DNA from: Anaerohalosphaeraceae bacterium
GTDB lineage: Bacteria > Planctomycetota > Phycisphaerae > Sedimentisphaerales > Anaerohalosphaeraceae
Length of the DNA: 64,000 nt
NCBI GenBank assembly: GCA_050309605.1
Contig: JBNRMN010000033.1
Coordinates: 160,001 to 224,000, forward strand
Direction: 5' to 3'
In this document: piece by piece, positions 19,282-36,028 of the stretch
Position numbering within the stretch: position 1 is the first letter of the stretch
Layout: each line of letters begins with the position of its first letter
Position numbers and translations under genes: made by a program
The notes under the pieces: generated by a model
Databases searched by the model: none
What the model was told of the DNA's origin: nothing
Seen by the model: the letters and a program-made list of their open reading frames with translations, nothing else

Positions 19282-20520
19282 ATGACACAATTCAGTGAGA
19301 TACCCGATGTCCTTGACGATTTGCGTCAGGGCAAGATGATCGTGCTTGTGGATGACGAGGATCGCGAAAACGAGGGCGATCTGGTGGCAGCGGCCGAGCT
19401 GATCACGCCGGAGATGATCAATTTTATGGCCACACACGGCCGGGGGATGATTTGCCTTCCGATGGATGAAGACCGATGTGACCGTCTGGGGCTGTATCCC
19501 CAGACGCTGTATAACACCGCTCGTCTGGGCACGGCCTTTACGGTAACGATTGATGCTCGCGAGGGCATCACGACCGGCATCAGTGCCGCCGACCGGGCGC
19601 ATACCATTCGCACGGCGATTGATGACAACTGCACGCCGGCGGATCTGGCTCGGCCGGGGCATATCTTTCCGCTGCGGGCGCGCAAAGGGGGTGTGCTGGT
19701 CCGCGCCGGGCAGACCGAAGGGGCGGTCGATTTGATGCGTCTGGCGGGATTGAAACCGGCCGGGGTGATTTGTGAGATTATGAGCGACGACGGGACGATG
19801 GCCCGCGTGCCGGAACTGATGGACTATTGCCGCCGATTCGGGCTGAAAATGACCTCCATCGCCAAGCTCATCGAGTATCGCCTGCAGCGCGAAAAACAAA
19901 TCATTCGAATTCAGGAAGTCAACCTGCCGACCGATTACGGCCAGTTCAAACTCATCGGTTACGAAAGCCCCGGTTCGACCGAGCCGCACCTGGCCCTGTG
20001 CAAGGGCGGCGTCGGCGATCTGGATGACCACGGCAATCCCATTGCCCATCCTGAACCGATACTGATTCGCGTGCATTCGGAATGTATGACCGGCGATTTG
20101 TTTCATTCGCAGCGCTGCGAGTGCGGCTATCAACTGATCACCGCGATGCAGATGATCGAAAAGGAGGGCAAAGGCGCTTTGATCTATCTGCGTCAGGAAG
20201 GCCGCGGCATCGGCCTGGCCAATAAGCTGCGGGCGTACAAACTTCAGGAACAGGGACGCGATACGGTCGATGCCAATCTGGAGCTGGGATTTATGGCCGA
20301 TAAGCGCGATTACGGCATTGGCGCGCAGATTTGCCATGATCTGGGACTTAGCCGTGTCCGCATTTTGACCAACAATCCCAAAAAAGTCTCGCGTTTACAG
20401 GTCTATGGCATTGAGATTGTCGAACAGCTTCCCTTGTGGGCAAAACCGGTTGAACACAATCGACGTTATCTTGAAACCAAACGCGATCGATTCGGCCATT
20501 TGCTTGAGGAGGATTTATAA
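19282..20520 (+). CDS. ribBA: Bifunctional DHBP synthase / GTP cyclohydrolase II
   Basis: [41 protein letters not shown]. Confidence 0.97.
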
Positions 20521-20523
20521 ACC

Positions 20524-20997
20524 GTGAGTCGTGTATGGGGCGTAGTACTGATTGCGGCAGGGGTCTTTTTGTCAACCGGCTGCGTTTCGGATCCCTTGGA
20601 TACGCAGCGGCGGTCTGTATGCCTGCGCCTGCTGGCGCTGACGGTTCTCGAATCGGATTCGGACGGTCAGGGCAAGGTCGTGCGGGCGTTTGTCCAGCCG
20701 ACGGATACCGCCCCGGTGCAGTGGTATCGCTTTGAACTGTATGAGCGGATGCCTTATGACGTCAACCCGCGAGGAAAACGGCTGGTTCTTTGGCCGGAGA
20801 TTGAGCCGGGCCTGCCGCGGCCGGATAACGCCCAATGGTATCAGCGGCTGGGTGCGTACGAAATCGCGCTGCCCGTGACCGAGCCGATCCCGAAGGAAAA
20901 ACGGTTGTTGCTGGAAGTAACGGCGTTGACCGCCGACGGCTTACGCTGTTCGGATACCGTTGAGATCGAATCAAACACCAATCTGACAGGTTCATAA
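20524..20997 (+). CDS. Hypothetical lipoprotein
   Basis: GTG start, hydrophobic N-terminus ending in LSTGC lipobox. Confidence 0.75.
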   Translation: MSRVWGVVLIAAGVFLSTGCVSDPLDTQRRSVCLRLLALTVLESDSDGQGKVVRAFVQPTDTAPVQWYRFELYERMPYDVNPRGKRLVLWPEIEPGLPRPDNAQWYQRLGAYEIALPVTEPIPKEKRLLLEVTALTADGLRCSDTVEIESNTNLTGS

Positions 20998-21000
20998 TCC

Positions 21001-21573
21001 GTGAATTGGAAATCCAAACATCAGCGGCTCGATGATGATGCCCTCGTCAAACAATGCCAGCGGGGAGATTCGGAGGCAATGAGCCGCCTGATTTGTAAGT
21101 ATCAAGACAGGGTATATAACACAATTTTAAAAATCTGCAATAATTCCGACGACGCCGCGGAACTTACGCAGGATACATTTGTCAAAGTATTGGAGAACAT
21201 AACGGATTTTCGCGGAAAAAGCTCATTTTATACGTGGCTGTTTCGCGTCGCGTGCAACGAGGCGATCAATTTCTGCCGTCGGCGGTTTAAGGTGGTCTCC
21301 CAGTCGCTGGACAGCGGGATGGCGCTGCCGGCGGATATGTCCGACAACGATCCGGCGCGTCTGGCCCAGCAGAAAGAAGTCATTGCGCTGCTGACCGAGG
21401 CCATCAGCCGGCTGGATGAGGATCATCGTGCTGTGCTGGTTCTTCGCGACATTGAACAGATGTCATACAATCAGATTTCGGATGTGCTTGGGCTGGAGTT
21501 GGGGACGGTCAAGAGCCGACTGAGCCGGGCGCGTGCGATGTTGCGTGAGATTCTTGAGACGGTGTTGACATGA
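21001..21573 (+). CDS. ECF RNA polymerase sigma factor
   Basis: DAAELTQDTF, SFYTWLFRVA, SYNQISDVLGLELGTVKSRLSRAR. Confidence 0.95.
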   Translation: MNWKSKHQRLDDDALVKQCQRGDSEAMSRLICKYQDRVYNTILKICNNSDDAAELTQDTFVKVLENITDFRGKSSFYTWLFRVACNEAINFCRRRFKVVSQSLDSGMALPADMSDNDPARLAQQKEVIALLTEAISRLDEDHRAVLVLRDIEQMSYNQISDVLGLELGTVKSRLSRARAMLREILETVLT

Positions 21574-22577
21574 ATAATGACCCGAAAACCGAAATGGACG
21601 AATTGCTGAGTGCGTATATCGATGACGCACTGACTCAGCGTCAGCAAACCGAGCTGAAACGTCTGCTGCAGCATCAGCCGGAGATTGCCGAACAGCTCAG
21701 CCGTCTGCGCCGTCAGCGGGAGCTGCTTTGTTCGCTGCCGATTGAGACGGCGCCGCCGACGCTGGTCGATGATGTGAAGACTCAACTGGAACGCCGACTG
21801 ATTCTCGAACAAAGGCAATCCCGCGGCTTGCTGAATCGTGCTTCTCTGCTGCGCCGGCGCATCACGGCTGCGGCGGCGATGCTGCTGCTGCCGATAGTGC
21901 TGTTGGGCTATGTGGTCTGGCGGATTGTTATGCCCGTTGCAGATGAGACGACGCAACGCACCACCGCGCAGGCGCTGTTGGAAGAGGACGCAGCGATTGC
22001 CGCGGTTGAACAGGACGAGTCCGCGGCATCCGAGGCCTTTGCAGCGCTGCCGTTTGACGGCGTTCTCGTGCTGACGTCGGAACGCCCGATACTGACGGCA
22101 CAGTCGATTGAAAAACAGATTTTCCTGTTGTCCCTGGAACACCAGACGATTCCCAATCGCACCGCTGAGAAGGTGACATTTCAGCTTGACTGCCCGGCCG
22201 AGCAGTTGGCCGAATTCATTGAGTCGCTCAAGCCGCTCTGGGCGCAGATTGACGACAGTCGGTTGACGCTTCAGGGCGATGACGCGGCGCAGCGGACCAT
22301 TACGATACCGCATATCCGCCCCGAACAGATTCAAACCCTCGTTCGCCAAACGGACACGATGCCGCTGCGGTCTGCGGCTCGACAATTCGCTGCGGCGAAC
22401 ATTTCGTCGCGTCCCGCCACGGAACAGGCCGGTGCTGCGGACGAGGAGCACGTCATCACACCCGATGATCTGCCGATTCCTCGACCGATATTGGCCTGGC
22501 CCGAACAGCCGCCGCCCCAAGCGACAATGACACTGCCTCATGTGCAATTGCTGATTGAGGTGCGCAAGCCGGAATGA
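21570..22577 (+). CDS. Putative membrane-anchored anti-sigma factor
   Basis: ATGA overlap with the sigma gene, ELLSAYIDDAL N-terminal ASD-like helix, single TM segment. Confidence 0.8.
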   Translation: MNNDPKTEMDELLSAYIDDALTQRQQTELKRLLQHQPEIAEQLSRLRRQRELLCSLPIETAPPTLVDDVKTQLERRLILEQRQSRGLLNRASLLRRRITAAAAMLLLPIVLLGYVVWRIVMPVADETTQRTTAQALLEEDAAIAAVEQDESAASEAFAALPFDGVLVLTSERPILTAQSIEKQIFLLSLEHQTIPNRTAEKVTFQLDCPAEQLAEFIESLKPLWAQIDDSRLTLQGDDAAQRTITIPHIRPEQIQTLVRQTDTMPLRSAARQFAAANISSRPATEQAGAADEEHVITPDDLPIPRPILAWPEQPPPQATMTLPHVQLLIEVRKPE

Positions 22578-22609
22578 ATGGAGAATTTAGAATTTAGAAT
22601 TGTATAGGA

Positions 22610-23149
22610 ATGCTCAGCTCGGATAAATCGTGTCTGGTCGTGATTGATGTACAGGAGAAACTGGCCGCGGTGATGCACGAATCGGCGGGGATGGTTTCCA
22701 ATTGCGTCGTCCTGGTGCGAATTGCCCGCACGCTGGATATGCCTGTGTTGTGGTGTCAGCAGTATCCCGAAGGCATCGGGCCGACGGTTGAGCCGCTGCG
22801 GGAGCATTTGAGCGGCATCGAACCGATAAACAAGCGGTGCTTTAGCTGCGTCGGGCATCCGGATTTTTCGGCCAGGCTCGAACAGCTCAATGTCGAAACG
22901 GCGATCTTGTGCGGCATTGAAACCCACGTCTGTGTCTTTCAAAGCGCGATGGAACTGATGCAAAAAGGTCTGTATGTCCACGTCATCGCCGATGCCGTTG
23001 CCTCGCGGACGCCGGCGAATAAACATCTCGGCCTGAATCGTATGGCCGCGTCCGGTGCGGTCATCAGTTCAACGGAAATGCTTCTGTTTGAATTGCTGCG
23101 AAGTGCCGAGCATCCGCACTTCAAGACACTCAGCAAGCTGATTCGGTGA
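22610..23149 (+). CDS. Isochorismatase-family hydrolase
   Basis: LVVIDVQEKL, QYPEGIGPT, K..FSC, GIETHVCV. Confidence 0.92.
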   Translation: MLSSDKSCLVVIDVQEKLAAVMHESAGMVSNCVVLVRIARTLDMPVLWCQQYPEGIGPTVEPLREHLSGIEPINKRCFSCVGHPDFSARLEQLNVETAILCGIETHVCVFQSAMELMQKGLYVHVIADAVASRTPANKHLGLNRMAASGAVISSTEMLLFELLRSAEHPHFKTLSKLIR

Positions 23150-23151
23150 GT

Positions 23152-23472
23152 TTACGGCTTGAGCGAATCGGCCAGATGAATCTGTTTATATCGGTCGGGG
23201 TGGTAGTATAATTGCAGCAGGGCGGTCAATTGCATAAAATCCACATAGTAGCGCCGAGCTTCGGCGTCGGCCAACAGCCACTTTTCCAGCCGCAAGAGAT
23301 ACCGCCGTTCGAGTACGCCGTCCAGCAATTTGAGAATGAACACACCCAGCCGCACCCAGCGTCGCGCCGTGGGGTCGATCGGATCGGATTCGGCGGCCGA
23401 ACCGAGCGACTCGTCGCACAATCGGTTCAGCTTGTTGATTTCGGACTGAATGTCATTAATGTCTTCGAACAT
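23152..23472 (-). CDS. Hypothetical protein (anti-sigma N-terminal-like helices)
   Basis: 106 aa; LLDG...LEKWLLADAEARRYY..FMQL resembles N-termini of planctomycete FecR-type proteins. Confidence 0.65.
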   Translation of the reverse strand: MFEDINDIQSEINKLNRLCDESLGSAAESDPIDPTARRWVRLGVFILKLLDGVLERRYLLRLEKWLLADAEARRYYVDFMQLTALLQLYYHPDRYKQIHLADSLKP

Positions 23473-23602
23473 AATTAAATTGTACGTTCCCTATGCCGAT
23501 GTGCCTACTTTTTTTCGCCGAACAATCCTTTTTTTCGACATTTTTTGTGAAAAAATGAATCAAAAAACAGAAAAACGGGTTTTTTAGGCTAATCGTCATC
23601 TC

Positions 23603-25702
23603 TTATGGCATTTTTTTGAGACCTTCCCACTTAACGACCCATTTTCCATCGTCCGGAAATCCGGGGGCATTGCGCGTCGGGGCGTCGTCCCAGCCGGCGG
23701 CCATCATCGCCGCCGCTGTCAGCAGGCCGCCGTTGCCGGGCATATAGACCGGCAGGCCTTCACGCTGCCAGTTGTGTCCGTTGGGCAGATAGCGGTTTTT
23801 CTGCACTTCCAGCAGCAGGGCGTCAATCGCCCAATCCGGCCTGCCGACCCGTGCGGCGGTCATCGCGATCATCGGATAATCCCAGCCCCACGTGTCGCTC
23901 CAGTCCCAGTTGCGCAACACATGTTCGACGGTCCGCGTCATCACCGCCTCGTTGACCATTCGCGATTTGGGCAGCACGCCCCAGGCGGCCAGCATACAGG
24001 GATGTCCGCCGTCGGCAACGAGCGGATGTTCCTGCTCCACATAGACACCGTTGTGTATCGGCAGTATCGCCAGATTACCCGCGATGCGCTCCCACATCGC
24101 GGCCGGTTCCAGTCCGAGCCGCTGACGCCACTGGGAGGCGGTGCGCAGCGCCCAATGCCAATAGGCCAGCTCAAAGGCAGCATTTTTGGTTTCGGCATAG
24201 CGTTTCGGCTCAAATTCCCGTGCCGAAATCAGCGGCGGCCCCAGTACAAAACTTTCGCTGAGGTCGTCCCAGTGTGCAAAATCGGCCATAAACGTCGCCG
24301 TTTCAAAAACGATGTCCTGGTATTTTTCCAGCGTTTCAGTGGTCGGATTTTCACGATAAAGCAGCTCGGCATAATAAATCGGATGCGGTTGCTGCCAAAT
24401 CAGCAGCGGCCCGATGCCCGAAGGAGCGTCCTGACCGTCGGGGCCGACCATCTTGGGCCAGCGCACGCCGGCATAGCCCTGCCGCTCGGCAATCTGTCGC
24501 GCGACCGGCATAATCTGTTCATACCACGCCAGCGACCGCTCGAATAAAGCACTGCGTCCCCAGAGCATCCACTGCACGCCGTGCCACCAGTGCATTTCCA
24601 AATGAAACTTGCCGAACCAGCTCGTGCAGGTCAGCCCCGTCTCGGCCGGCGGGTACTTCTGGGCAGACTGAAGACCCATCAGATACTGCGACAGCACAAT
24701 CCGCCGTTCCAGCTCATACCAGCGTTCGTCGCTGCTTTCGGACAAGTCAATCGCTCCGCCGGAGGTCCAGAAATTGTGCCAATGAGTCGCGGCCTTGCGG
24801 CTGATGTCCTCGAATGATTCGACGGGCGAATCGATGGGCGTCTGTGAAAAGAGGACCGAAAACGTCAACGTCTCATCGCCGTTCGGCCCGAACAGCAGGT
24901 ATTCGTGACGATCAGTCTTGAGCAGCTTGCCGTTGTGGTGAATGCGGCAGAAATACGTCAGTGTATCCAGTTCGCGCTCGATCAGGGCGCTGGTTTCGTT
25001 TTCGCGGACTGTTTGGGTCCGATGTTTGCTCGGCTGCGACCAGTCGGCCGGGTCATTGCCCCATGTCGCCGACGGATACGGAAAACGCAGGGCGATTTTG
25101 ACACGTCCGTCCCGCAGCAGGGCGCTGTCAATCGACACGGCGATGCCGTCATAGTCGGGATGTGCGACGGTGTGTACTTCGACCGGCTGGCCGTCGATGG
25201 CAAATCGGCTGACGAGCCGTCCTTCCCACAGCCGCAGTGTTTGGTTGATTTGCGACAGATCGGCCACGGTCAGCCGCCTGCCGTTTTCATCCGTCAGGAC
25301 AAAGCCGATCTGCCCCAGATGCGTTTGATGCGGATTGGCTCGCAGATAGCGTCCGGCGGGGGATTCACTGATGATGTTGTACTCCACCGCTCGGCCGTAG
25401 GTATCGGCCTTGACAAAGGTATCGGCCAGCGTATAGCCCTCGGTGTTTTCGAATCGGTTCCAGCCCCACTCGGCCATTGTGGTCAAGGGAATCGTGTTCG
25501 CGTAGTGGGCGGGAAAACTTTGCAGCCCGGTTACATCGGCGTTAAACGCAAATCGCCCGTTGCCTACCGACAGCGGCGCCAGCGGATCGGCGGCGGTCAG
25601 CTTGACATCGTGTCGGCTGACAAGCGCCTTGCGGTCAATCCCCTCTGCCCGGATTGCACCGCCAACCACCGCGACCCACACCAACGCCATCCGAATGTCC
25701 AT
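23603..25702 (-). CDS. Secreted glycoside hydrolase, GH65-like (alpha/alpha)6 barrel
   Basis: Signal peptide, IDRKALVSRH, LSVGNGRFAF, SWFGKFHLEM, WQQPHP, WGWDYP, PGNGGLL. Confidence 0.8.
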   Translation of the reverse strand: MDIRMALVWVAVVGGAIRAEGIDRKALVSRHDVKLTAADPLAPLSVGNGRFAFNADVTGLQSFPAHYANTIPLTTMAEWGWNRFENTEGYTLADTFVKADTYGRAVEYNIISESPAGRYLRANPHQTHLGQIGFVLTDENGRRLTVADLSQINQTLRLWEGRLVSRFAIDGQPVEVHTVAHPDYDGIAVSIDSALLRDGRVKIALRFPYPSATWGNDPADWSQPSKHRTQTVRENETSALIERELDTLTYFCRIHHNGKLLKTDRHEYLLFGPNGDETLTFSVLFSQTPIDSPVESFEDISRKAATHWHNFWTSGGAIDLSESSDERWYELERRIVLSQYLMGLQSAQKYPPAETGLTCTSWFGKFHLEMHWWHGVQWMLWGRSALFERSLAWYEQIMPVARQIAERQGYAGVRWPKMVGPDGQDAPSGIGPLLIWQQPHPIYYAELLYRENPTTETLEKYQDIVFETATFMADFAHWDDLSESFVLGPPLISAREFEPKRYAETKNAAFELAYWHWALRTASQWRQRLGLEPAAMWERIAGNLAILPIHNGVYVEQEHPLVADGGHPCMLAAWGVLPKSRMVNEAVMTRTVEHVLRNWDWSDTWGWDYPMIAMTAARVGRPDWAIDALLLEVQKNRYLPNGHNWQREGLPVYMPGNGGLLTAAAMMAAGWDDAPTRNAPGFPDDGKWVVKWEGLKKMP

Positions 25703-25771
25703 ACTTGGCCTCCCAATATGCAATGATCAATAATCAATTGAAAGAGTGGGTCTGTAAGCCGAGTTCTGTAT

Positions 25772-25867
25772 CCCCGCACCTAAAAATTGATATTGATCAT
25801 TATCCATCGATGATTGTTGTGTGAACGCAATATCAACGTTGTCAATCTTCAATTTTTAGGTGCGGGG
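25772..25867. repeat. 96-bp hairpin element with 19-bp perfect terminal inverted repeats (rnpB P19)
   Basis: CCCCGCACCTAAAAATTGA ... TCAATTTTTAGGTGCGGGG. Confidence 0.9.
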
Positions 25868-26168
25868 CAGCGGTCATTAAACTGGACCGGCCGTTGCCGA
25901 CCGGCTCTGACGACAGATCTGCCCGTCGTCAAGCGACCTACCCGCTGTGAAACGCCCGGGCCGGGCACACAGCATACTTGGTCTTGCAGGCGGTGGGGTT
26001 TGCCGTGCCGCCGCTGTTACCAGCGACGCGGTGCGCTCTTACCGCACCATTTCACCCTTACCTGTGCCCCGAAGGGCCATCGGCGGTGTCTTTTCTGCGG
26101 CACTTTCCCGCGGGTTGCCCCGGGCGGCCGTTAGCCGCCACCGTGCCCTGTCCTGCTCGGACTTTCCT

Positions 26169-26272
26169 CCCCGCACCTAAAAAAGTATGCACATATCACC
26201 CTCGTTGTGCTGTTCTTTGCACTCAGAACCACAGCACACAATCGTATCAGACCTACTTTTTTAGGTGCGGGG
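26169..26272. repeat. 104-bp hairpin element with 19-bp perfect terminal inverted repeats (rnpB P3)
   Basis: CCCCGCACCTAAAAAAGTA ... TACTTTTTTAGGTGCGGGG. Confidence 0.9.
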
Positions 26273-26413
26273 CGACCGCCCGACCCACTCTTTCAGAGTC
26301 CTATTATAAAGGGTAATGAGCGCAGATAAAGAAGGTTCGCCTGAAAATCGGCTTTTTGGCCTGTTTTTTGTGAAAAAAGGCCGCGATTGGAATCATCGCG
26401 GCCCGACAGAGAG

Positions 26414-27091
26414 TCAGTTTTCCCGGACGAGTACGTCAAGGGTGCGTGTGCCCCATTTTTTGGCCACGGCGTGGGAATGGAAGAAGACGTCAAGGCGGTT
26501 GCCTTTGATAACCCGTCCGCGGTCCAGCACCTGCACGGACCGGTTGTCATTGTACCCCGGAATAATCATTTCAGTGCCGAATTGATACATTTTATCGGCG
26601 GCGACGAACACATCACCCGGACGGATGCGGTGGTTGCAGGCGGTCACGCCGTCGGCAAACTTGCCGCAGCAGATGGAACACGGGCAATAGGCCGTGACGC
26701 GCATCCGGACAACCCGCCAGCGCTGGTCGTTTTTGACCACCTCATAGACTGCGTCCTGGTCATTTTGGTAGAGCCGTTCCAGGAGGTGCTGCTCAGCGGT
26801 GTAGCTTGACGTGTCCGCCTCGGCCTCGATTGGCTCTTCGGCTGCGGCGGCGGGCACATCCTCTTCATACGGCATCATCGCACGCAAATACAGGGTTCCG
26901 TCGGCGATAGCCATTGTCATGCAGCATCCGAGGACGAGCAAAAACAGGGCGGCCGCTGCCCATGCCGCGACGCCGAACAAATACGGCTGGCCCCCGTGCG
27001 GGCGCAAGGTTTTCTCCTGCTGTGCCAATTGTCGAACCTTTCCAAAAATATCGCATTCAGGCGGACTTACACAAGTCCTGTCCCCTTTCAC
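26414..27091 (-). CDS. 3D (Asp-Asp-Asp) domain membrane protein
   Basis: TM segment, VTAYCPC..CCG, VAAD, VLDRG..IKGNRLDVF. Confidence 0.88.
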   Translation of the reverse strand: MKGDRTCVSPPECDIFGKVRQLAQQEKTLRPHGGQPYLFGVAAWAAAALFLLVLGCCMTMAIADGTLYLRAMMPYEEDVPAAAAEEPIEAEADTSSYTAEQHLLERLYQNDQDAVYEVVKNDQRWRVVRMRVTAYCPCSICCGKFADGVTACNHRIRPGDVFVAADKMYQFGTEMIIPGYNDNRSVQVLDRGRVIKGNRLDVFFHSHAVAKKWGTRTLDVLVREN

Positions 27092-27198
27092 GTGAGCCGA
27101 TCTATTGTCGGCTCCTGACCTGTCCGGTCATCATTGAAAGGCCTTCCATGGCGCAGTAAACGACAAAAGCCCCGGTATCCGAGGGCTTCATTAACGGG

Positions 27199-27227
27199 AG
27201 CATAGCAAGTCAATATTAAAATGTCAA
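27199..27227 (-). promoter_or_regulatory. Putative sigma70 promoter of the 3D-domain gene
   Basis: TTGACA-N17-TATGCT with extended TG on the minus strand. Confidence 0.6.
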
Positions 27228-27899
27228 GCGACATCGCTGTAAAAGTGCGATTGAGGGGCCGATAAAATACCGGTTTTTAGTGTTGTAAGTAAGGTTTTTT
27301 GAAAAAACGTAAAATTTTCAGGGATTCACGACTCTTTTTATAGGTCAATTTTTTTGAATGCCTCGAATTTGAAATGGTGGTTTGCGCTCAAGTGAGCCGC
27401 GGGCGTCCATGCCCACGACCCTATGATACCCCAGATGCTCCTCGGCGCGTCGGGCGCGTACCGAGTACCTGTCCGTATCATCTGATGATCATTGCTGAAA
27501 TGCCTCGTTTTTTGTTCACGTCAGCCTCCTTAAAACACTCATTATTTGAGACCCTATTATACTGGCCCCTGAAGGGGATTCAATCCTCATTTCGGTGTTT
27601 TTCGAAAAAATATGAAAAATCGGTTCATTTGCGCCGGGAGATAATAAACACCATCACCGCCACAATCAGAACAATGACGAGCACTTCGTGTGAACTCAGC
27701 ATCACCGCGATCATCGCACGACCGTTCCGATAGATTGAATCATTCTGTTCATCGATCTGTTCATCGATTTCAATTATGCCGGCCCGGTGCAACGGGTCAA
27801 GTACTAATTTTTTGTGAAGCGGCATCCTGTTTTCTCTTGCGAATGCTTTGATGTCTTTTTATAGTAAACAAAAAGAACTTGTCGAGGGAGAACAGAAAA

Positions 27900-28565
27900 A
27901 TGAAGGTCTATCGCTTGTGCCCCATCGTCGCAGCGGGACTGTTTTTATGGGGGGTATCGCTGCAATCGGCGTCTGTTGAAGCTCCTTGCCAGACGCCTCA
28001 AACCTATGGTTCGGCTGAGGTGTCGCGCCTCATTGAAATGGATTCGGCCTGCACGCTGCTGTGCGATATTGAGTCCTTTCCGCCTGTCGTCGGTCAAGCC
28101 ATTCCCGTGCATCTTGAAGGGGTGGAGGTTCCCTCCGGCGGGGCGGTCAATCGTGAGGTGGCGGCCTTTCTTCAGCAGGTTCTCACGCCGGAGACGCAGG
28201 AGCCTCCTTCGATTGTGCTGAAAAACATCCGCCGCGGGCTAACGTTTTCCCTGGTGGCCGATGTCGAGGTCGATGGCAAAGACCTGGCTCAGATGCTTGT
28301 GGACAAAGGGCTGGCGCGTCGGATCATCCGGCTGGACGCCGAATCGCAGGCCGAAGGCTCCGCTGCCGCAGCGCAGGGCGAATCCTCGCAGCAGACCGAA
28401 TCGACGAAGCAAACGGGATTTGTTGCCTCACGAACCAGTAAAATCTTTCATCGCCCCGATTGCTCCCATGCCAAACGCATTGATCCGGCCAGGGTCGTCG
28501 TATTTGAAACACGGCAGGAAGCCGAGCAAAACGGGCGACGCCCCTGTAAGACCTGCAATCCGTAA
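27900..28565 (+). CDS. Secreted thermonuclease-like OB domain plus Ada-type Zn-binding domain protein
   Basis: Signal peptide; VHLEGVEVP, LVADVEVDGKDLAQMLVDKGLA; C-terminal SKIFHRPDC...GRRPCKTCNP. Confidence 0.8.
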   Translation: MKVYRLCPIVAAGLFLWGVSLQSASVEAPCQTPQTYGSAEVSRLIEMDSACTLLCDIESFPPVVGQAIPVHLEGVEVPSGGAVNREVAAFLQQVLTPETQEPPSIVLKNIRRGLTFSLVADVEVDGKDLAQMLVDKGLARRIIRLDAESQAEGSAAAAQGESSQQTESTKQTGFVASRTSKIFHRPDCSHAKRIDPARVVVFETRQEAEQNGRRPCKTCNP

Positions 28566-28593
28566 TTGGTTTAGCGGCGCCGGCCGCGCGCAA

Positions 28594-28629
28594 AAAAGCC
28601 CTTCTTTCTTAAGAGAAGGAAGGGCTTTT
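28594..28629. terminator. Bidirectional intrinsic terminator
   Basis: AAAAGCCCTTC...GAAGGGCTTTT between convergent genes. Confidence 0.75.
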
Positions 28630-28667
28630 GGCTCATTTTCGGCGACACGCCGAGTCTGCCCAAAGGC

Positions 28668-28901
28668 TTACAGGTCCTGAGGTTTTACGGTGCTGCGACG
28701 ATTGGCCTCGGTCCGCTTGCAGGCCGCATCCAGAATCTCGTAAACGCACTCGTTCAGCGCCGTCGCGGTTTCGGACGAACTCATCATCCCTTTGTCTTTG
28801 ATGTACGCCTTGACCTTGCTGGTGACAACCAGCATTTCCTTTGCGGCGGCCTTTTTGGCGGCCTTTGCTTTCTTCTTTGCAGCAGCTTTTTTCTTTGCCA
28901 T
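28668..28901 (-). CDS. Bacterial histone-fold protein with Lys/Ala-rich N-terminal tail
   Basis: GGAGG SD; MAKKKAAAKKKAKAAKKAAAK then EMLVVTSKVKAYIKDKGMMSSSETATALNECVYEILDAACKRTEANRRSTVKPQDL (RxTxxxxD). Confidence 0.88.
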   Translation of the reverse strand: MAKKKAAAKKKAKAAKKAAAKEMLVVTSKVKAYIKDKGMMSSSETATALNECVYEILDAACKRTEANRRSTVKPQDL

Positions 28902-29228
28902 TTCGGCACCTCCATGTTGAAAATAACGTTCCAATAAAATCGACTCTCGCGAGCCGAAAACCACGATTACGGGTATTTTGAAAAGGTTTTGGCGTTATTT
29001 CAACAAAAAAATCCACAAAAATTCACATATTTTGCACTTATAGAGCCTATAAATGCAAAATTTGCAGGTTTTTCAGCTGCGCCGCTTCTGCGGGATTGAC
29101 TTTTTCCGTCATTTCCGCGGTTTTTGGTTAATCGCTTCGCGTCTATGGTCGATTTGAAATTCGTAAACCGTGGCCTTCGAAAAGGCTTTAACCCTGCGAG
29201 TGCTGTATTTTTCGCGGAGAGCAATGCG

Positions 29229-29564
29229 ATGAATCGAAAGACCCGAAAACGAACGACCGACCTGAAGGATTATGTGACCGTGGCCTTCGCTGAGGACCTG
29301 GATCTGGCTCGCCAGTATGGCAGACTTCTGGCCGAGCAGGACATTCCGTCCGTTATCAAGAATCTGGGCAAAGCGCAGCAAGACGGCCAGAGCGGGATTG
29401 CGGTGATGGTGCCGGAAGAGTTTCTGGATGAGGCGTATGTGCTGATCAGTGAAGAGGCGTCGTATGACGATTTCTTTGATGCGGCGTTCGAAGACAACGG
29501 CTACGAAGGGTATGAACAGCGCGACCCGTCTTTTTATGATGATGACGAGGACGATCTCTTTTAA
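29229..29564 (+). CDS. Hypothetical protein (DUF2007-like) with acidic C-terminus
   Basis: GGAGA SD; LLAEQDIP, IAVMVPEEFLDEA pattern. Confidence 0.7.
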   Translation: MNRKTRKRTTDLKDYVTVAFAEDLDLARQYGRLLAEQDIPSVIKNLGKAQQDGQSGIAVMVPEEFLDEAYVLISEEASYDDFFDAAFEDNGYEGYEQRDPSFYDDDEDDLF

Positions 29565-29595
29565 GCTGCGGTTTGCGACGGCACAAATCAAACCA

Positions 29596-30030
29596 ATGAA
29601 CCCTATGACTGACAGGCAGCAAAATATGACGGAAAAACTGAATCCACAGCAATCGGACGTAAGCAGTGAAGATACGCGCCAGGAAAAGCGAACGACCTCG
29701 GAGGAATCGGGCGGTTTTACGGAACGCCGCAAATTCACCGAACGGCGGCGGAATCTGGTCGATCGCCGCAGCGGTTTTGATCGGCGCCGCGGTCCGGGAC
29801 ACCGGCGCACCGAGGAGCGCCGAGCCGCCGAAGAAGGCGAAATGACCGACGAGCAGTTCGACTTTTTGATGGCGATAGACCAATACAAGCGCGCCAACCA
29901 GCGTCCGTTTCCCACCTGGACGGAGGTGCTTGAAGTGGTCAAGGCCATCGGCTACCGCAAAGTCGCCGAGCCGCAGCCGCTTGAATCATTTCGCAAGGCG
30001 GACAAAAGCCAGCCCGTCGAAGTGGGATAA
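29596..30030 (+). CDS. Conserved planctomycete-type hypothetical protein with ERR/DRR repeats
   Basis: ERRKFTERRRNLVDRRSGFDRRR...MTDEQFDFLMAIDQYKRANQRPFPTWTEVLEV; start uncertain (29596/29605/29626). Confidence 0.78.
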   Translation: MNPMTDRQQNMTEKLNPQQSDVSSEDTRQEKRTTSEESGGFTERRKFTERRRNLVDRRSGFDRRRGPGHRRTEERRAAEEGEMTDEQFDFLMAIDQYKRANQRPFPTWTEVLEVVKAIGYRKVAEPQPLESFRKADKSQPVEVG

Positions 30031-30057
30031 CCTCGACCGCGCGGACAAAAGGGGCTG

Positions 30058-30858
30058 TTAAGCCTTGTTTTCAAGCGTCGTGAGGGTTTGCCGGATAAAT
30101 GCGTCGATTTCGCGGCGCATTTTTTCTTTGTCGTCAAGGTTGTCCTCGATCATTTTTACGATGCGGCTGCCGATAATCACGCCGTCGGCCCCGTCGTCGG
30201 CCACCTGCCGGGCGTGGTCGGGCGAGCTGATGCCGAAGCCCACGCACACGGGCAGGGCGGTTAAGGCCTTGAGCCGGTTGATCAGAGGCTTGACCCGCTG
30301 CGACAATGCAGTGCGCTGGCCGGTGGTTCCGAGCAGAGAGACGGTATAGATAAAGCCGGTGGTGCGTTCAATGATTTGTCTGAGCCGCGCATCGGGACAG
30401 TTGGGTGTGGCCATAAACACGGTTTCCAGACCCGCCGCTCTGGCCAGCGGAGCGATTTCGTCCGCATCGTCGATGCTCAAGTCCGCAATCAGGATGCTGG
30501 TTCCCCCGGCCTGCTTGAAATCCCGAAAGAAGGCGTCCGTACCGTACTGATAGACCGGATTGTAATAGACCAGCAGCCCGATGGGCACGGGTTTGTAAGC
30601 GGCGACTTGGGCGACAAACTCCAGCGCCTTGGGGGGCGTCATGCCCGCCTTCAGGGCGCGAATATCGGCCTTCTGGATGGTCGGGCCGTCGGCCACCGGA
30701 TCGGTAAACGGAATCCCCAGCTCAAGGATATCGGCGCCGGCGTCAAGGGCGGTCTTGACCATGTCCAGACTGGTTTGCAGGTCCGGATCGCCGATGACAA
30801 AAAACGGAATCATCGCCGCCCGATTCAATGCATTAAACACGTCTTGATAGCGTCCCAT
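30058..30858 (-). CDS. trpA: Tryptophan synthase alpha chain
   Basis: ELGIPFTDPVADGPTIQ, GFGIS, DGVIIGS. Confidence 0.97.
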   Translation of the reverse strand: MGRYQDVFNALNRAAMIPFFVIGDPDLQTSLDMVKTALDAGADILELGIPFTDPVADGPTIQKADIRALKAGMTPPKALEFVAQVAAYKPVPIGLLVYYNPVYQYGTDAFFRDFKQAGGTSILIADLSIDDADEIAPLARAAGLETVFMATPNCPDARLRQIIERTTGFIYTVSLLGTTGQRTALSQRVKPLINRLKALTALPVCVGFGISSPDHARQVADDGADGVIIGSRIVKMIEDNLDDKEKMRREIDAFIRQTLTTLENKA

Positions 30859-30938
30859 AGCAGCCTCAAAAAAATGATCCAGCCGACGGCTGTGGATAAT
30901 TTAACTTTTTGATTTTTTGATTTTTACCGTATTATTTT

Positions 30939-32114
30939 TTAATCGATGGGTCGATGTTCTTCCACGATGCCGATGTCTTTGTCGCCGCGTCCGGACAGGT
31001 TGACCACCGCGACAGTATCGGCCGGCAGTTTTCCTTGTTGCGCCAGCAGCCAGGCCAGGGCGTGCGAGCTTTCCAGGGCCGGCATGATCCCTTCCAGCCG
31101 CGTCAGCAATGCAAATGCGTCCAGCACCTGCTCATCCTCGACGGCGACATACATCGCCCGCCCGGTGTCTTTCAGATACGCATGTTCCGGCCCGACGCCG
31201 GGATAATCCAGCCCCGCTGAGATGCACTCGGTCTCGTGAATCTGCCCGTCGGCGTCCTGCAGTACATAGGTCCGAGCGCCGTGCAGAATGCCTACGGAGC
31301 CGACATTCAGCGTCGCGCAGTGATGGCCGGTGTGCAGACCTCTGCCGGCGCCTTCAATGCCGATGAGCCTGACCGATGCATCATCAAGAAAGCCGGAGAA
31401 TATGCCGATCGCGTTGGAGCCGCCGCCGACACAGGCCGCGACCAGATCCGGCAACCGCCCGATGCGCTCCAGGCACTGGGCGCGGGCTTCTTTGCCGATG
31501 ACGGTCTGAAACTGTCGGACGATCATCGGAAACGGATGCGGTCCGCCGGCCGTGCCGAACAGATAAAACGTGTCCTCCACATTCGCCGTCCAGTAGCGCA
31601 GGGCCTCATTGATGGCGTCTTTGAGTGTGCCCGTGCCGCCGGCAACCGAAATGACTTCGGCGCCGAGCAGCTTCATCTTATGCACATTGACGTTCTGGCG
31701 GGCCACATCGACGCAACCCATAAAAATTTTGGTCTCCATCCCGAACAGCGCTCCGACCATAGCGGTTGCCAGGCCGTGCTGGCCGGCGCCGGTTTCGGCG
31801 ATGAGTTTTTTCTTGCCCATATAGCGAGCCAGCAGCCCCTGACCGAGGGCGTTGTTGGTCTTGTGAGCGCCGCCGTGCAGCAAATCTTCGCGTTTGAGCC
31901 ACACGGCAAAGCCGGCTTGTTCGCTGAATCGCCGGGCGTGATACAGCGGCGTCGGGCGTCCGGCGTAATCGGCCAGCAGGGCGTTCAAGTCGCTGACAAA
32001 TGCCGGATCATTTTGAAACCGCAAGAATGCCGCCTCGATTTCTTCGATTGCCGGTATAAGCACTTCGGGGACATAAAACCCGCCGTATTGTCCATATCGT
32101 CCTTTTTGTTTCAT
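30939..32114 (-). CDS. trpB: Tryptophan synthase beta chain
   Basis: [52 protein letters not shown]. Confidence 0.98.
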
Positions 32115-32752
32115 TGTCTTGCCTTTAGACCTGTGGTGTATCGAATGCCATCGAACAGTTTTTTCATTTTTTGATGATCTTTTTTGCCGGGGGCCGATTC
32201 GATTCCGCTGCATACATCAATGCCATAGACGCCGGTGCGGATTGCCTCGGCGACATTGTCCGGCGTGATTCCCCCGGCCAGAAAGAGCCGCTTGGGGATG
32301 TCTTTGATCCACTGCCAGTTGAACTGCGAGCCGGTTCCGCCATAGGCGTCGGGCGAAAAGGCATCCAGCAGAACGGCGTAGGTGTAATAGGCATTGGCTG
32401 TCTGAATGTCTTCTTGGTCTCGCACGCGAATCGCCTTGAGGGTGCGGACATTGGCGAATCGGACTTGATCGCAAAATTCCGGCGTCTCGTCGCCGTGCAG
32501 TTGAATCCAGTTCAGATAGCCGGTTTCCGCGAGGGCCTTGATTTCCTCGATGGGCGCGTTGACGAACAGTCCGACGCTGTCCACAAAGGTCGGCAGCTTG
32601 TTGATGATGGAAAAGGCTTCTTCCGGCCGAATGTAACGCGGACTTTCGGGATAAAAATTAAATCCGAGCATATCCGCCCCCATCTCGAAGGCCGCCCGGG
32701 CGTCGTCAAGATTCGTGATGCCGCAAATTTTGACTTTGATGTTGATAATCAT
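32111..32752 (-). CDS. trpF: Phosphoribosylanthranilate isomerase
   Basis: [29 protein letters not shown]. Confidence 0.97.
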
Positions 32753-32759
32753 CGTTCAG

Positions 32760-33776
32760 CTATCCGTTGCTTAATTCAATCAGCTTATCCAGGCACGCCA
32801 GCGCATTGCCGGAGGCGATGGCGTGATCGGCCTTCTCGATGCCTTCGACAAAATCGCCGGCCAGCCCGGCGATCATTATAGCGGCCGCGGCGTTCAAAAG
32901 CACGATATCTTTTTTCGGGCCGCTTTCTTTGCCGGCCAGAATCGCCCGGATAATTTGTCCGTTGACCATTGCCTCGCCGCCGGCCAAGTCGTTAAAATCC
33001 GCCAGCCGAAACCCGTTCTCGGTCGGGTCGAGCGTTTCTTCGCTGATGTGTCCGTCTTTCAGGTACAGGATGCGCGTCGGCCCCATGGTGCTCAGTTCAT
33101 CCAGCCCGTTGCTGTGGACGACCATTGCCCGTTTCAGTCCCAGCACCCGCAGCGTCTCAATGATGCGCGGCATCAGGGATTCGTCGGAGACGCCCATCAC
33201 CTGCGCCGGGACATCGGCCGGGTTGGCCAGCGGGCCAAGGATGTTAAAGGCCGTGCGAAAATCCAGACTCTGCCGAACGGGCTGGACGTGCTTCATCGCC
33301 GGATGAAACTTGGGCGCGAACATAAAGCCGATGTGTGCCTGTTCGATGCACTCGGCTACCCGCTGCGGCCCCGGTGCGACATTGACGCCCATCGCTGTCA
33401 GGACATCCGCCGAGCCGCAGACGCTGGTTATGCCTTTGTTGCCGTGTTTGGCCACATACGCTCCCGCTCCGGCGGCCACGAACGCGGCGGCGGTGGAGAT
33501 GTTGAACGTTTTCATGACCGCTCCGCCCGTGCCGCAGGTGTCAATCAGCGGCGCAACATCCACGTTGACCGGCACAGCGTGTTTACGCAGTGAGGTTGCC
33601 AGCCCCGCCAGTTCAGAGACCGCCGCCTTCTTGACGCGCATTGCCGCCAGAAACGCCGCGATCTGCACCTCTGAGACCTCGCCGTCAAAAATAATGTCCA
33701 GCAGATGCTCGGCCTGTTCAAACGTCAGGTCGCGGCCTTCCAAAATCAATTCAAGATACTCTGTAATCTTCGCCAT
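32760..33776 (-). CDS. trpD: Anthranilate phosphoribosyltransferase
   Basis: DTCGTGG, FNIST, KHGN, GSADVL, GPLANP. Confidence 0.97.
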   Translation of the reverse strand: MAKITEYLELILEGRDLTFEQAEHLLDIIFDGEVSEVQIAAFLAAMRVKKAAVSELAGLATSLRKHAVPVNVDVAPLIDTCGTGGAVMKTFNISTAAAFVAAGAGAYVAKHGNKGITSVCGSADVLTAMGVNVAPGPQRVAECIEQAHIGFMFAPKFHPAMKHVQPVRQSLDFRTAFNILGPLANPADVPAQVMGVSDESLMPRIIETLRVLGLKRAMVVHSNGLDELSTMGPTRILYLKDGHISEETLDPTENGFRLADFNDLAGGEAMVNGQIIRAILAGKESGPKKDIVLLNAAAAIMIAGLAGDFVEGIEKADHAIASGNALACLDKLIELSNG

Positions 33777-33806
33777 ACCGGCCTCCCGTCATTGTTTGAA
33801 GTGAAC

Positions 33807-34397
33807 TTACCGTTGTGCTATTTTCAAAATATTTTCAATAATCCGTCCGCCCGCCGGAGTCAGGATGCTTTCCGGGTGAAACTGCACGCCGTGGATCGGC
33901 AGTGCGGTGTGCACCACACCCATCACGATGGATTCGAACGATGCGTTTTGCCGCAGACATGCCGGCAGACGTGCGGCGCACAGGCTGTGATAGCGTCCGG
34001 TTTGCAGGGGATTTTCCAGTCCCTCAAACACCCCCGTCCCGTCGTGTGTGATGCGCGAGGGCTTGCCGTGGACGACGTGCGGGGCGTGGCCGATGTGCCC
34101 GCCGAAATACTGTACGATTGCCTGATGCCCCAGACACACGCCGAACAGGCACAGCTTGTCGTGGAAATAATCAATTGCTTCCAGCGTTACGCCCGCCGTC
34201 GAAGGCGTACCCGGTCCGGGCGAAAGCACCAGCAGGTTCGGCTCAAACGCCTCGGCCGCGCGAACCAGTTCGCTCAGCGGCGTATCGGAACGATAGACCT
34301 TGGTGGGGCAGTTGCGTTTGGCAAATTCATCGACCAGGTTATACGTAAACGAATCAAAATTGTCGATAAAAAGCACCTTGGTGTGATGTTCGCTCAT
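33807..34397 (-). CDS. trpG: Anthranilate synthase component II (glutamine amidotransferase)
   Basis: IDNFDSFTYNL, SPGPG, GVCLGHQ, RYHSL, QFHPES. Confidence 0.96.
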   Translation of the reverse strand: MSEHHTKVLFIDNFDSFTYNLVDEFAKRNCPTKVYRSDTPLSELVRAAEAFEPNLLVLSPGPGTPSTAGVTLEAIDYFHDKLCLFGVCLGHQAIVQYFGGHIGHAPHVVHGKPSRITHDGTGVFEGLENPLQTGRYHSLCAARLPACLRQNASFESIVMGVVHTALPIHGVQFHPESILTPAGGRIIENILKIAQR

Positions 34398-36028
34398 TGG
34401 GAACCTCCGTTTGCTTTGTGCAGGGCCGCTGCGGCGCGGACGGCCTTAAGGCAGGATTGGGCCTTGTGTTCGGTCTCTTGAAATTCCGTCGTCGGCACGC
34501 TGTCGTGCACGATGCCCGCTCCGGCGCGAATGTAGGCGGTCTGATCGCGGATTTGCAGGCTGCGGATGGTGATGCAGCTGTCGAATTGACCGTCAACGGT
34601 CAGGTACATCACCGCGCCGCCGTAGTAGCCGCGTTTGTTTTTTTCCAGTTGACGGATGATCTTCATCGCCTCGATTTTCGGTGCGCCGGTCAGCGTGCCC
34701 ATATTCATCGTCGCCAGATACGCACTGAGCGCATCGGTATCGCTGCGGAGCTTGCCCTTGACGTTGCTGACCAGATGCATCACCGATTCATACCGCTCGG
34801 TAATCAGCATTTCGTTGACGACGCGGCTGCCCGGCTGGGCGACGCGGGCAATGTCGTTGCGGGCCAGATCCACCAGCATCATATGTTCGGCCAGTTCCTT
34901 GCGATCCAGTTTTAATTCGGCTTCATTGCGAATATCGGTGTCGGGGTCGATTTTGCCGTTGATCCGTCCGCGGGGTTTGGTGCCGGCGATGGGGCGAATC
35001 TCCACGGCCCGGCCGTTGGTGCCGCTGACCCGCAGATTCAGCTCCGGACTGGCGCCCATCAGCACGGTCGAAGGGGTATTGATGTAGAACATGTACGGCG
35101 ACGGATTGAGTTTGCGAAGCTGCCGATACACATCCAGCGGCTCGGCCGGGCACGGCTCGGTGATCGTTCGGCTCAGCACCACTTGAAAGATATCGCCGTC
35201 CAGAATGTGCCGCTTGGCCTGCTGCACCATCGCCTCATAGTCGGCCTGTGTCGTGTCGGTATCGGACAAGGCCGATACCTCCGTCGCCGGTCGCGGCGCC
35301 GGACGCTCGGCGGCGGCCCGCTCAACATAGCTGTCAAAACACTCATTGGCCTGACGGCAGATCTCGTCACGGTCGCCGTTGGTGATTATCGCATTGACGA
35401 TGACATAGCCTCTGCCCTTGCGATGATCCATCAGAAAGATGTTGTCGGCAAAATACAGTTCATAGTCCGGATTATCGAGAATGTCGTGATCATTGGCCGG
35501 CAGTTTTTCGAATTGGTCGATAAAGTCATAGCTCAGCGCCCCGACCAGTCCGCATGTCACGCGAAACGGCTTGCTGGCCAGTTCAAACGCAAAGCCGACC
35601 GCCCGCAGCACGTCCATTTGGTTGGTGCTTTTGAGCCGCGACTGTTCGTCCATGATCCTGTCGTTGGGCCGCAGTTGACCGGTAATGCACTCCGGGGCAA
35701 ATTCGACGGTTTGGCAGAACGCAAATCGCTGCCGGTGCTCGGCCAAATACGTTAGCATCCGCCGCCCCGTCGGGGTCAGGGCATCAATGCGGAATCGATC
35801 GCCGCGGCCGGTCAGATACAGGGCCGGATCGGCCGTGCCGAAGGTCAGCTCCCCGGCGTCGCCTTCAGTCAGGTAGTCCCGCGATTCGAGCAGACAGCAG
35901 TGCCGTTTGCGGCCGTAGTCGCTCAGACGGGCAAAAAACTCCACCGGACAGGTAATATCGATTTCCCGCACCATCGGGATAATCTGGCCCGGCCTGGCCC
36001 GATGAATCCGTTTTTCGTACTCTCTCAT
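34394..36028 (-). CDS. trpE: Anthranilate synthase component I
   Basis: LLES, NPSPYM, IAGTKPRG, EHMMLVDLARND, GAPKI; start at 36028 (AGGA SD) or 36043. Confidence 0.96.
   Translation of the reverse strand: MREYEKRIHRARPGQIIPMVREIDITCPVEFFARLSDYGRKRHCCLLESRDYLTEGDAGELTFGTADPALYLTGRGDRFRIDALTPTGRRMLTYLAEHRQRFAFCQTVEFAPECITGQLRPNDRIMDEQSRLKSTNQMDVLRAVGFAFELASKPFRVTCGLVGALSYDFIDQFEKLPANDHDILDNPDYELYFADNIFLMDHRKGRGYVIVNAIITNGDRDEICRQANECFDSYVERAAAERPAPRPATEVSALSDTDTTQADYEAMVQQAKRHILDGDIFQVVLSRTITEPCPAEPLDVYRQLRKLNPSPYMFYINTPSTVLMGASPELNLRVSGTNGRAVEIRPIAGTKPRGRINGKIDPDTDIRNEAELKLDRKELAEHMMLVDLARNDIARVAQPGSRVVNEMLITERYESVMHLVSNVKGKLRSDTDALSAYLATMNMGTLTGAPKIEAMKIIRQLEKNKRGYYGGAVMYLTVDGQFDSCITIRSLQIRDQTAYIRAGAGIVHDSVPTTEFQETEHKAQSCLKAVRAAAALHKANGGSQ

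Follow-up and report, generated by a model that had tools for sequence, protein, structure and literature searches.

A predicted face-to-face histone with a lysine/alanine N-terminal tail in a planctomycete genome

Bacterial histones have been recognized only recently, and to our knowledge only HBb and HLp among them have been studied biochemically.

HLp of Leptospira perolatii is a tetramer in solution that wraps about 60 bp of DNA and reorganizes the nucleoid in E. coli (Hu et al., Nat Commun 2025, PMC12701072; PDB 9QT0-9QT2), and Leptospira is described there as lacking HU. HLp is a face-to-face (FtF) histone; non-specific DNA binding with about 50-60 bp wrapped around the tetramer is a mark of this class, demonstrated for HLp only (PMC12701072). 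In the survey of Schwab et al. 2024 (PMC11390915), FtF histones are predicted to form a torus-shaped tetramer and share conserved HMM positions 48 (R), 52 (N), 54 (R), 56 (T) and 61 (D) together with a lysine at position 16, while bacterial dimers such as Bd0055 lack R48 and N52; the L2 motif reported for the dimers is RKT. The survey also places FtF histones in Planctomycetota and describes positively charged N-terminal tails as common in bacterial FtF histones, with no sequence-level account of Lys/Ala tails in its main text (PMC11390915). Hocher et al. 2023 state that most bacterial singlets lack long tails and that histone genes persist in Planctomycetota (PMC10627809). The literature thus already covers FtF histones, their occurrence in Planctomycetota and their basic tails (PMC11390915), and our full-text literature searches found no paper testing the tails of bacterial FtF histones.

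Here we analyze a 64,000-nucleotide stretch of DNA (hereinafter the window) from an Anaerohalosphaeraceae bacterium, which carries a clean, full-length FtF example with a pure Lys/Ala tail.

The histone gene, its start and its transcription signals

The histone gene and the signals around it are as follows, in coordinates of the window.

28668..28901, reverse strand: histone gene, 77 codons plus stop (stop codon 28668-28670), from the ORF translation
28839..28898, reverse strand: Lys/Ala tail, codons 2-21, 10 Lys and 10 Ala, net charge +10, predicted disordered, from composition and AlphaFold2 (AF2) pLDDT
28671..28838, reverse strand: predicted alpha3-truncated histone fold, codons 22-77, from PDB search, AF2, Foldseek and family signature
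28909..28913, reverse strand: Shine-Dalgarno (SD) sequence GGAGG, 7 nt before the ATG (28899-28901), from the sequence
28928..28957, reverse strand: 5' leader, a GC-rich hairpin (28940-28957) followed by the motif TTATTGGAAC (28928-28937), from folding and locus comparison
28975..29003, reverse strand: promoter-like site, TTGAAA, 17 nt, CAAAAT, preceded by a T-tract, from the sequence
28594..28629, both strands: bidirectional intrinsic terminator hairpin common to the convergent gene 27879-28565, from 16 pairs and T-runs on both strands

The 77-residue ORF and its strong GGAGG are as the initial annotation described them, and a composition count bears out its reading of residues 2-21 (AKKKAAAKKKAKAAKKAAAK) as exclusively lysine and alanine, ten of each, with a net charge of +10. 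The core (residues 22-77) has a net charge of +1, the computed pI of the whole protein is 9.9, and residues 69-76, RSTVKPQD, match RxTxxxxD. The gene is present in a single copy in its own genome (3.4 Mb, 97 contigs, 99.7% complete). Short forward-strand ORFs that overlap it, such as 28792-28920, are mirror images of the Lys/Ala codons. The ORF itself is not a chance one, since 119 of the best 120 of 1337 related proteins show an M[A/V]K[K/A/Q] start with a Lys/Ala-rich stretch after it (the remaining differences being longer upstream gene calls) and all 80 related genomes examined have the same layout.

We weighed a shorter product, in which translation begins at the internal Met23 (MLVV), the tail is not made and the Lys/Ala codons form a leader; the initial annotation had named such a start as the finding that would overturn its view of the tail. 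Met23 does lie exactly at the start of the fold, and a methionine stands there in 44 of the best 120 of 1337 homologues. The position, immediately before LVV, is nevertheless not conserved: it is occupied by V in 58 of these proteins, by M in the 44 and by P, I, A and S in 6, 4, 4 and 4, respectively. No SD precedes Met23 in the window. Among the best 80 of 322 species genomes with a relative, 34 loci have no start-capable codon at the tail/core junction, and a junction start codon is preceded by an SD-like motif in only 3 of the 46 loci that have one. By contrast, the MAK ATG is present in 80 of 80 of these related loci, an SD-like motif lies within 16 nt of it in all 81 loci (window included), 113 of the best 120 of 1337 related proteins begin MAK, and both the reading frame and the K/A composition are kept across differences in tail length. 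The start at Met23 is rejected as extremely improbable, and the sequence comparison shows that the tail is translated.

The histone gene is a solitary one: it has a promoter-like site of its own and a conserved hairpin leader, and it shares its terminator. In the closer relatives the upstream elements follow one order, namely a T-tract with TTGCAA/TTGAAA, a CAAAATAC-like box, a GC-rich hairpin, TTATTGGAAC and the SD, and the T-tract with TTGCAA/TTGAAA and the CAAAATAC-like box align in most of 38 upstream regions. The leader hairpin of the window has a dG of -10.3 and a z of -2.5. The TTATTGGAAC motif occurs in 40 of 81 loci, and in 28 of these 40 the adjoining hairpin has z < -1.5, with a stem sequence that varies by locus. 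RNAalifold on a MAFFT alignment of the 38 upstream regions gave no consensus structure, and the hairpin was therefore assessed locus by locus. An Rfam search of positions 20000-36000 at gathering thresholds returned no family at the leader and a single hit, a full-length bacterial class A RNase P RNA (25739-26291, reverse strand, 268 bits), which explains the tangle of short ORFs in that interval. That the leader stabilizes or regulates the mRNA is a reasonable guess. Downstream of the gene, the terminator hairpin forms 16 pairs when read on the forward strand, and on the reverse-strand reading its stem is followed by CTTTTTTGCG. The initial annotation had assigned the histone gene a terminator of its own; the hairpin is real, but it also ends the convergent gene 27879-28565 and is thus shared.

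Among the sequencing runs covering the stretch, none is on record as RNA. Two compost libraries labelled transcriptomic, which we rate as probably DNA, cover small parts of it, with a 151-nt contig corresponding to 28697-28847 and a 207-nt contig corresponding to 29020-29200, both at an identity of at least 99%.

Histone fold and predicted tetramer

A phmmer search against the PDB places HLp (9qt0) first, with an E-value of 2.2e-16 over query residues 18-76, followed by HBb/Bd0055 at 4.6e-06 and 5.5e-06 and the archaeal FtF histone HTkC at 0.1. The AF2 model, computed from 135 family sequences, has a mean pLDDT of 80.8, with core blocks at 89-95 and residues 1-16 below 50; its helices are alpha1 (27-36), alpha2 (45-66) and a one-turn alpha3 (74-76). 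Compared with the PDB by Foldseek, the model is closest to 9qt0_A (TM 0.97 normalized to the target, rmsd 0.6 Å, 54% identity), with HTkC (9f2c_A, TM 0.89) and then HBb (41% identity) below it and the best eukaryotic histones at E-values of at least 0.08 and TM scores of at most 0.55. The AlphaFold and Foldseek comparison that the initial annotation proposed thus predicts a histone fold with HLp as the nearest structure, in keeping with its assignment of residues 22-77 to a histone fold with the RxTxxxxD motif. Both AF2 and Foldseek show the shortened alpha2 and the alpha3 of 3-4 residues that mark FtF histones; a full-length alpha3 of the nucleosomal type with a four-helix-bundle contact is not seen, alpha3 being a single turn in the AF2 model. 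The Pfam Histone model PF00125 scores below threshold (E 0.1, 13.3 bits against a gathering cut-off of 26.4), which reflects the limits of the model and not a missing fold; no other histone-fold model is among the three Pfam matches listed, and an NCBIfam search of the histone protein gave nothing meaningful.

All of the FtF signature residues are present: R63, N67, R69, T71 and D76 correspond to HMM positions 48, 52, 54, 56 and 61, and K31 to position 16. R63, N67, R69 and T71 are conserved to 90% or more across 135 family members, all of which keep D76; K31 does not vary among 39 closer relatives. With the offset of +14 given by the PDB search alignment, R49, N53, R55 and D62 of HLp match R63, N67, R69 and D76. 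The HLp residues reported in PMC12701072 map onto the planctomycete protein at this offset as follows.

Tetramer contacts: HLp R49, S52, N53, R55, T61, F63; here R63, A66, N67, R69, Q75, L77
RD clamp: HLp R55-D62; here R69-D76
DNA contacts: HLp A13, S14, K15, K17, K21, T27, G29, T56, T57; here T27, S28, K29, K31, K35, S41, S43, S70, T71

A complex model with four copies of the chain reaches a score of 0.88, whereas the best of 3 controls stays at 0.00; contacts coincide between its runs to 97% or more, and the partner chain has a pLDDT of 82 or higher. Each copy forms a handshake dimer with one copy and a second interface with another through residues 62-63, 66-67, 69 and 73-76, which are the positions equivalent to the HLp interface. 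In calibration the mark applied to the complex score was reached by 20 of 30 solved one-chain pairs and 1 of 23 solved single chains, counts that apply here only roughly because the calibration used two copies and a different alignment. The pass of the tetramer model may partly reflect the memory of the modelling program for 9QT0 and 9F2C. On these models the protein is predicted to form a closed FtF homotetramer like the HLp ring.

The initial annotation had likened the core to Bd0055, which would imply a bacterial dimer of the Bd0055/HBb type that bends DNA or coats straight DNA and forms no wrapping tetramer. HBb/Bd0055 is indeed homologous (E about 5e-6, 41% identity), and the LVVTSKVK start of alpha1 is common to HBb/Bd0055 and the planctomycete histone. 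HLp is however far closer (E 2.2e-16, 54% identity), the L2 loop reads R-S-T-V-K-P-Q-D and not RKT, and R63 and N67 are present, the equivalents of the R48 and N52 that bacterial dimers lack according to PMC11390915. A closed tetramer is moreover confidently predicted. The marks of the dimer class (absence of R48 and N52, no oligomer beyond the dimer, an RKTxxxD L2, clustering with Bd0055) are not found in this protein, and we regard a dimer-only histone as very unlikely. The closeness to HLp, the signature residues and the predicted tetramer place the protein with the FtF histones and not with the Bd0055 type. We conclude that the gene very probably encodes an alpha3-truncated FtF bacterial histone, predicted to be a nucleoid-associated DNA-packaging protein.

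By likeness to HLp, two chains of the FtF histone would form a handshake dimer, and a pair of these dimers would join into a closed ring tetramer, with contacts from the alpha2 end, L2 and the one-turn alpha3 (R63, A66, N67, R69, Q75, D76, L77). About 60 bp of DNA, a figure taken over from HLp, would wrap around the ring non-specifically, touching the beginning of alpha1 (T27-S28-K29), K31, K35 and the loops L1 (S41, S43) and L2 (S70, T71). DNA wrapping, abundance and the role of the tail are what we infer for this histone.

The Lys/Ala tail, its variation and its possible role

In the predicted structure the tail exits the fold right beside the alpha1 DNA-contact site. With its four tails, a tetramer whose core is nearly neutral (+1 per chain) would thus gain about +40 charges, which should raise the affinity for DNA, neutralize phosphates and probably aid compaction or bridging. 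Comparable Lys/Ala-rich tails are found on H1 and on some bacterial HU-like proteins and offer a parallel for such a role.

The initial annotation had called for a survey of tail conservation. Relatives of the histone are encoded in 322 species genomes, of which we examined the best 80, taking as tail length the N-terminal extension that begins at Met1 and ends with the residue preceding LVV (23 residues for the window). A tail is present in all 80 loci. Tail lengths span 5-41 residues (median 16.5), with at least 10 residues in 59 of the 80 loci, at least 23 in 12 and 5-8 in 21, and the composition is 43% K and 29% A. In the family alignment no tail position is conserved apart from MAKK and a K-E that immediately precedes the fold, and the tails of some loci contain repeats such as KKAAPA. 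On these alignments the tail is conserved as composition and not as sequence, with a very variable length; a long tail is not essential to the family, given the relatives with only 5-8 residues.

The wider family comprises 303 representatives at E-values up to 0.001. Among the best 150, the histone fold is matched once in 121, and more than once or not at all in the other 29 (mostly doublets). The 121 singlets divide into 54 with a basic tail of at least 10 residues, 36 with at most 9 residues, 13 with an acidic or neutral extension and 18 others, including mis-called starts. The initial annotation had presented a long basic tail as unusual for a bacterial histone. This does not hold, as basic tails are reported to be common already in bacterial FtF histones (PMC11390915), and its description of Bd0055-type bacterial histones as mostly tailless probably goes back to the statement of Hocher et al. 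2023 (PMC10627809). Within the wider family, eight proteins (P0125, P0144, P0145, P0216, P0224, P0233, P0247 and P0259) carry one or two histone folds after a hydrophobic, signal-peptide-like N-terminus ending ...AARSSKPK; from their sequences these may be exported histone-fold proteins.

A reading compatible with the packaging role takes the tail as a regulated, eukaryote-like substrate, in which acetylation or methylation of lysines tunes compaction. The tail is predicted to be disordered and has ten lysines, and genes for two Hist_deacetyl-family proteins and one SIR2 protein are present in the genome. The two families are, however, also found in 9 and 10 of 14 control genomes, respectively, so that the deacetylase genes say nothing specific. 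Furthermore, no SET-domain gene was found in the histone's own genome, no modifying enzyme is among the Pfam-scanned neighbours, and a tail of variable length that keeps only its composition, without conserved positions beyond MAKK, fits bulk charge better than site-specific marks. We consider regulation by lysine modification unlikely.

A further proposal, which we put forward as doubtful, is that the K/A tail may act as a length-tunable compaction arm (5-41 residues) resembling the C-terminal domain of H1, its charge perhaps set by acetylation and the hairpin leader perhaps taking part in dosage control. If this were true, the degree to which particles of FtF tetramer and DNA condense or bridge would depend on expansion and contraction of the tail.

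Segments of the Lys/Ala type are not peculiar to the histone, as a scan of its whole genome found them in 7 ORFs. One is a 51-residue ORF (G000:C95:21689-21844, forward strand) composed almost only of K, A and T (MAKKKAAAKKATKK...), a free-standing, H1/Hc2-like basic protein and possibly a second nucleoid protein of this genome. Also among the 7, and in the window itself, a 936-residue ORF (51954-54764, reverse strand), which we take to be pyruvate phosphate dikinase-like, opens with a 22-residue Lys/Ala/Thr-rich extension (MAKAKAKAKTTKKK...) ahead of its second Met; either this is a basic tail on an enzyme or the second Met is the true start. A further one of the 7 (G000:C21:92150-92926, reverse strand) combines a C-terminal zinc-finger region that is presumably DksA/TraR-like with about 90 N-terminal residues in which Lys, Ala, Thr and Ser abound.

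Genomic context and comparison with known histones

Two small genes lie upstream of the histone gene and are transcribed divergently from it.

29229-29564, forward strand: gene A, 111 residues, DUF2007-like (just under the Pfam cut-off), net charge -17, with an acidic C-terminal tail rich in D, E and F
About 29605-30030, forward strand: gene B, 141 residues, with an Arg-rich stretch and a strongly conserved helical C-terminal part

Gene B matches no Pfam family and has no sequence relative in the PDB. Its 6280 relatives are all unnamed or clearly mis-named, and its AF2 model is poor (mean pLDDT 59.8). The other neighbours include a 3D-domain protein, a protein with an Ada_Zn_binding domain and trpA, as named by Pfam, and one that is presumably trpB (named also from matches near related loci).

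A functional link between the histone and genes A and B was considered and judged weak. A relative of each of the two genes lies near the histone in 64 of 80 close loci (best 80 of 322). Across 251 genomes of the phylum, however, 48 have both the histone and gene B, 57 the histone only, 50 gene B only and 96 neither, and the histone and gene B are adjacent in 4 of the 35 genomes checked, all belonging to the order of the window. Co-occurrence and adjacency thus fail outside one order, and the association is lineage synteny at best.

These neighbours bear on a different reading of the histone, namely that the histone-fold protein has another role, as a specific regulator or an RNA- or ribosome-associated protein, perhaps together with the two small genes. 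Such a role would agree with the adjoining divergent pair of uncharacterized genes in 64 of the 80 close relatives and with the Lys-rich tails found also on non-chromatin proteins of the same genome, and Schwab et al. caution that not all prokaryotic 'histones' need be global organizers (PMC11390915). Against it stand the retention of the HLp DNA-contact and tetramer residues and the confinement of the neighbour link to one order (adjacency 4/35; histone alone 57/251, neighbour alone 50/251). We hold this role to be most unlikely, and DNA packaging by an FtF histone remains the preferred reading.

The close relatives of the histone are labelled Phycisphaerae, Sedimentisphaerales, Anaerohalosphaeraceae and other Planctomycetota, with some other labels stemming from automatic binning. 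The histone profile matches 105 of the 251 genomes in the even sample of the phylum, and 71 of the 161 whose completeness is 90% or more and whose contamination does not exceed 5%. From other families of the same class, nine nearly complete genomes (G001, G041, G068, G117, G136, G155, G172, G189 and G222) have no match to the histone profile, and the Arg-rich protein of gene B is present in all nine. The histone's own genome also has one HU gene, whose product carries no Lys/Ala tail, and the histone therefore need not be the main nucleoid protein. Since the tail is translated and keeps its composition while varying greatly in length, the clade offers a natural series for testing what the tail contributes to a wrapping tetramer.

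The closest described system is HLp, with which the planctomycete protein shares the alpha3-truncated fold, the R/N/R tetramer residues, the RD clamp (R69-D76 here) and the alpha1, L1 and L2 DNA-contact positions. The two differ at the N-terminus, where HLp has about 7 disordered residues that are not Lys/Ala-rich and the planctomycete protein a 20-residue pure Lys/Ala tail (+10), and at the interface, where A66 and Q75 take the places of HLp S52 and T61. They differ also in setting: Leptospira is reported to lack HU (PMC12701072), whereas the planctomycete genome has one HU gene. In comparison with the FtF histones of Planctomycetota as described in PMC11390915, the family, the phylum and the basic tails are the same and nothing categorical differs. 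Bd0055/HBb of Bdellovibrio bacteriovorus (8CMP, 8FVX, 9EZZ) resembles the present protein in its short fold, truncated alpha3 and LVVTSKVK-type alpha1; by contrast, it is essentially tailless, is 41% identical and belongs to a dimer-only class reported to lack the R and N tetramer residues (PMC11390915).

The tailed nucleosomal histones of eukaryotes and Asgard archaea likewise combine a disordered, Lys-rich N-terminal tail with a histone fold. Their nucleosome is, however, built through a four-helix bundle, whereas a closed homotetramer ring through a truncated alpha3 is predicted here, and the tail of the planctomycete protein is a low-complexity K/A sequence of variable length with no conserved positions. 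The planctomycete gene leaves the picture of histone-tail origin unchanged, and in composition its K/A tail is nearer to H1-type or bacterial AKKA-type tails.
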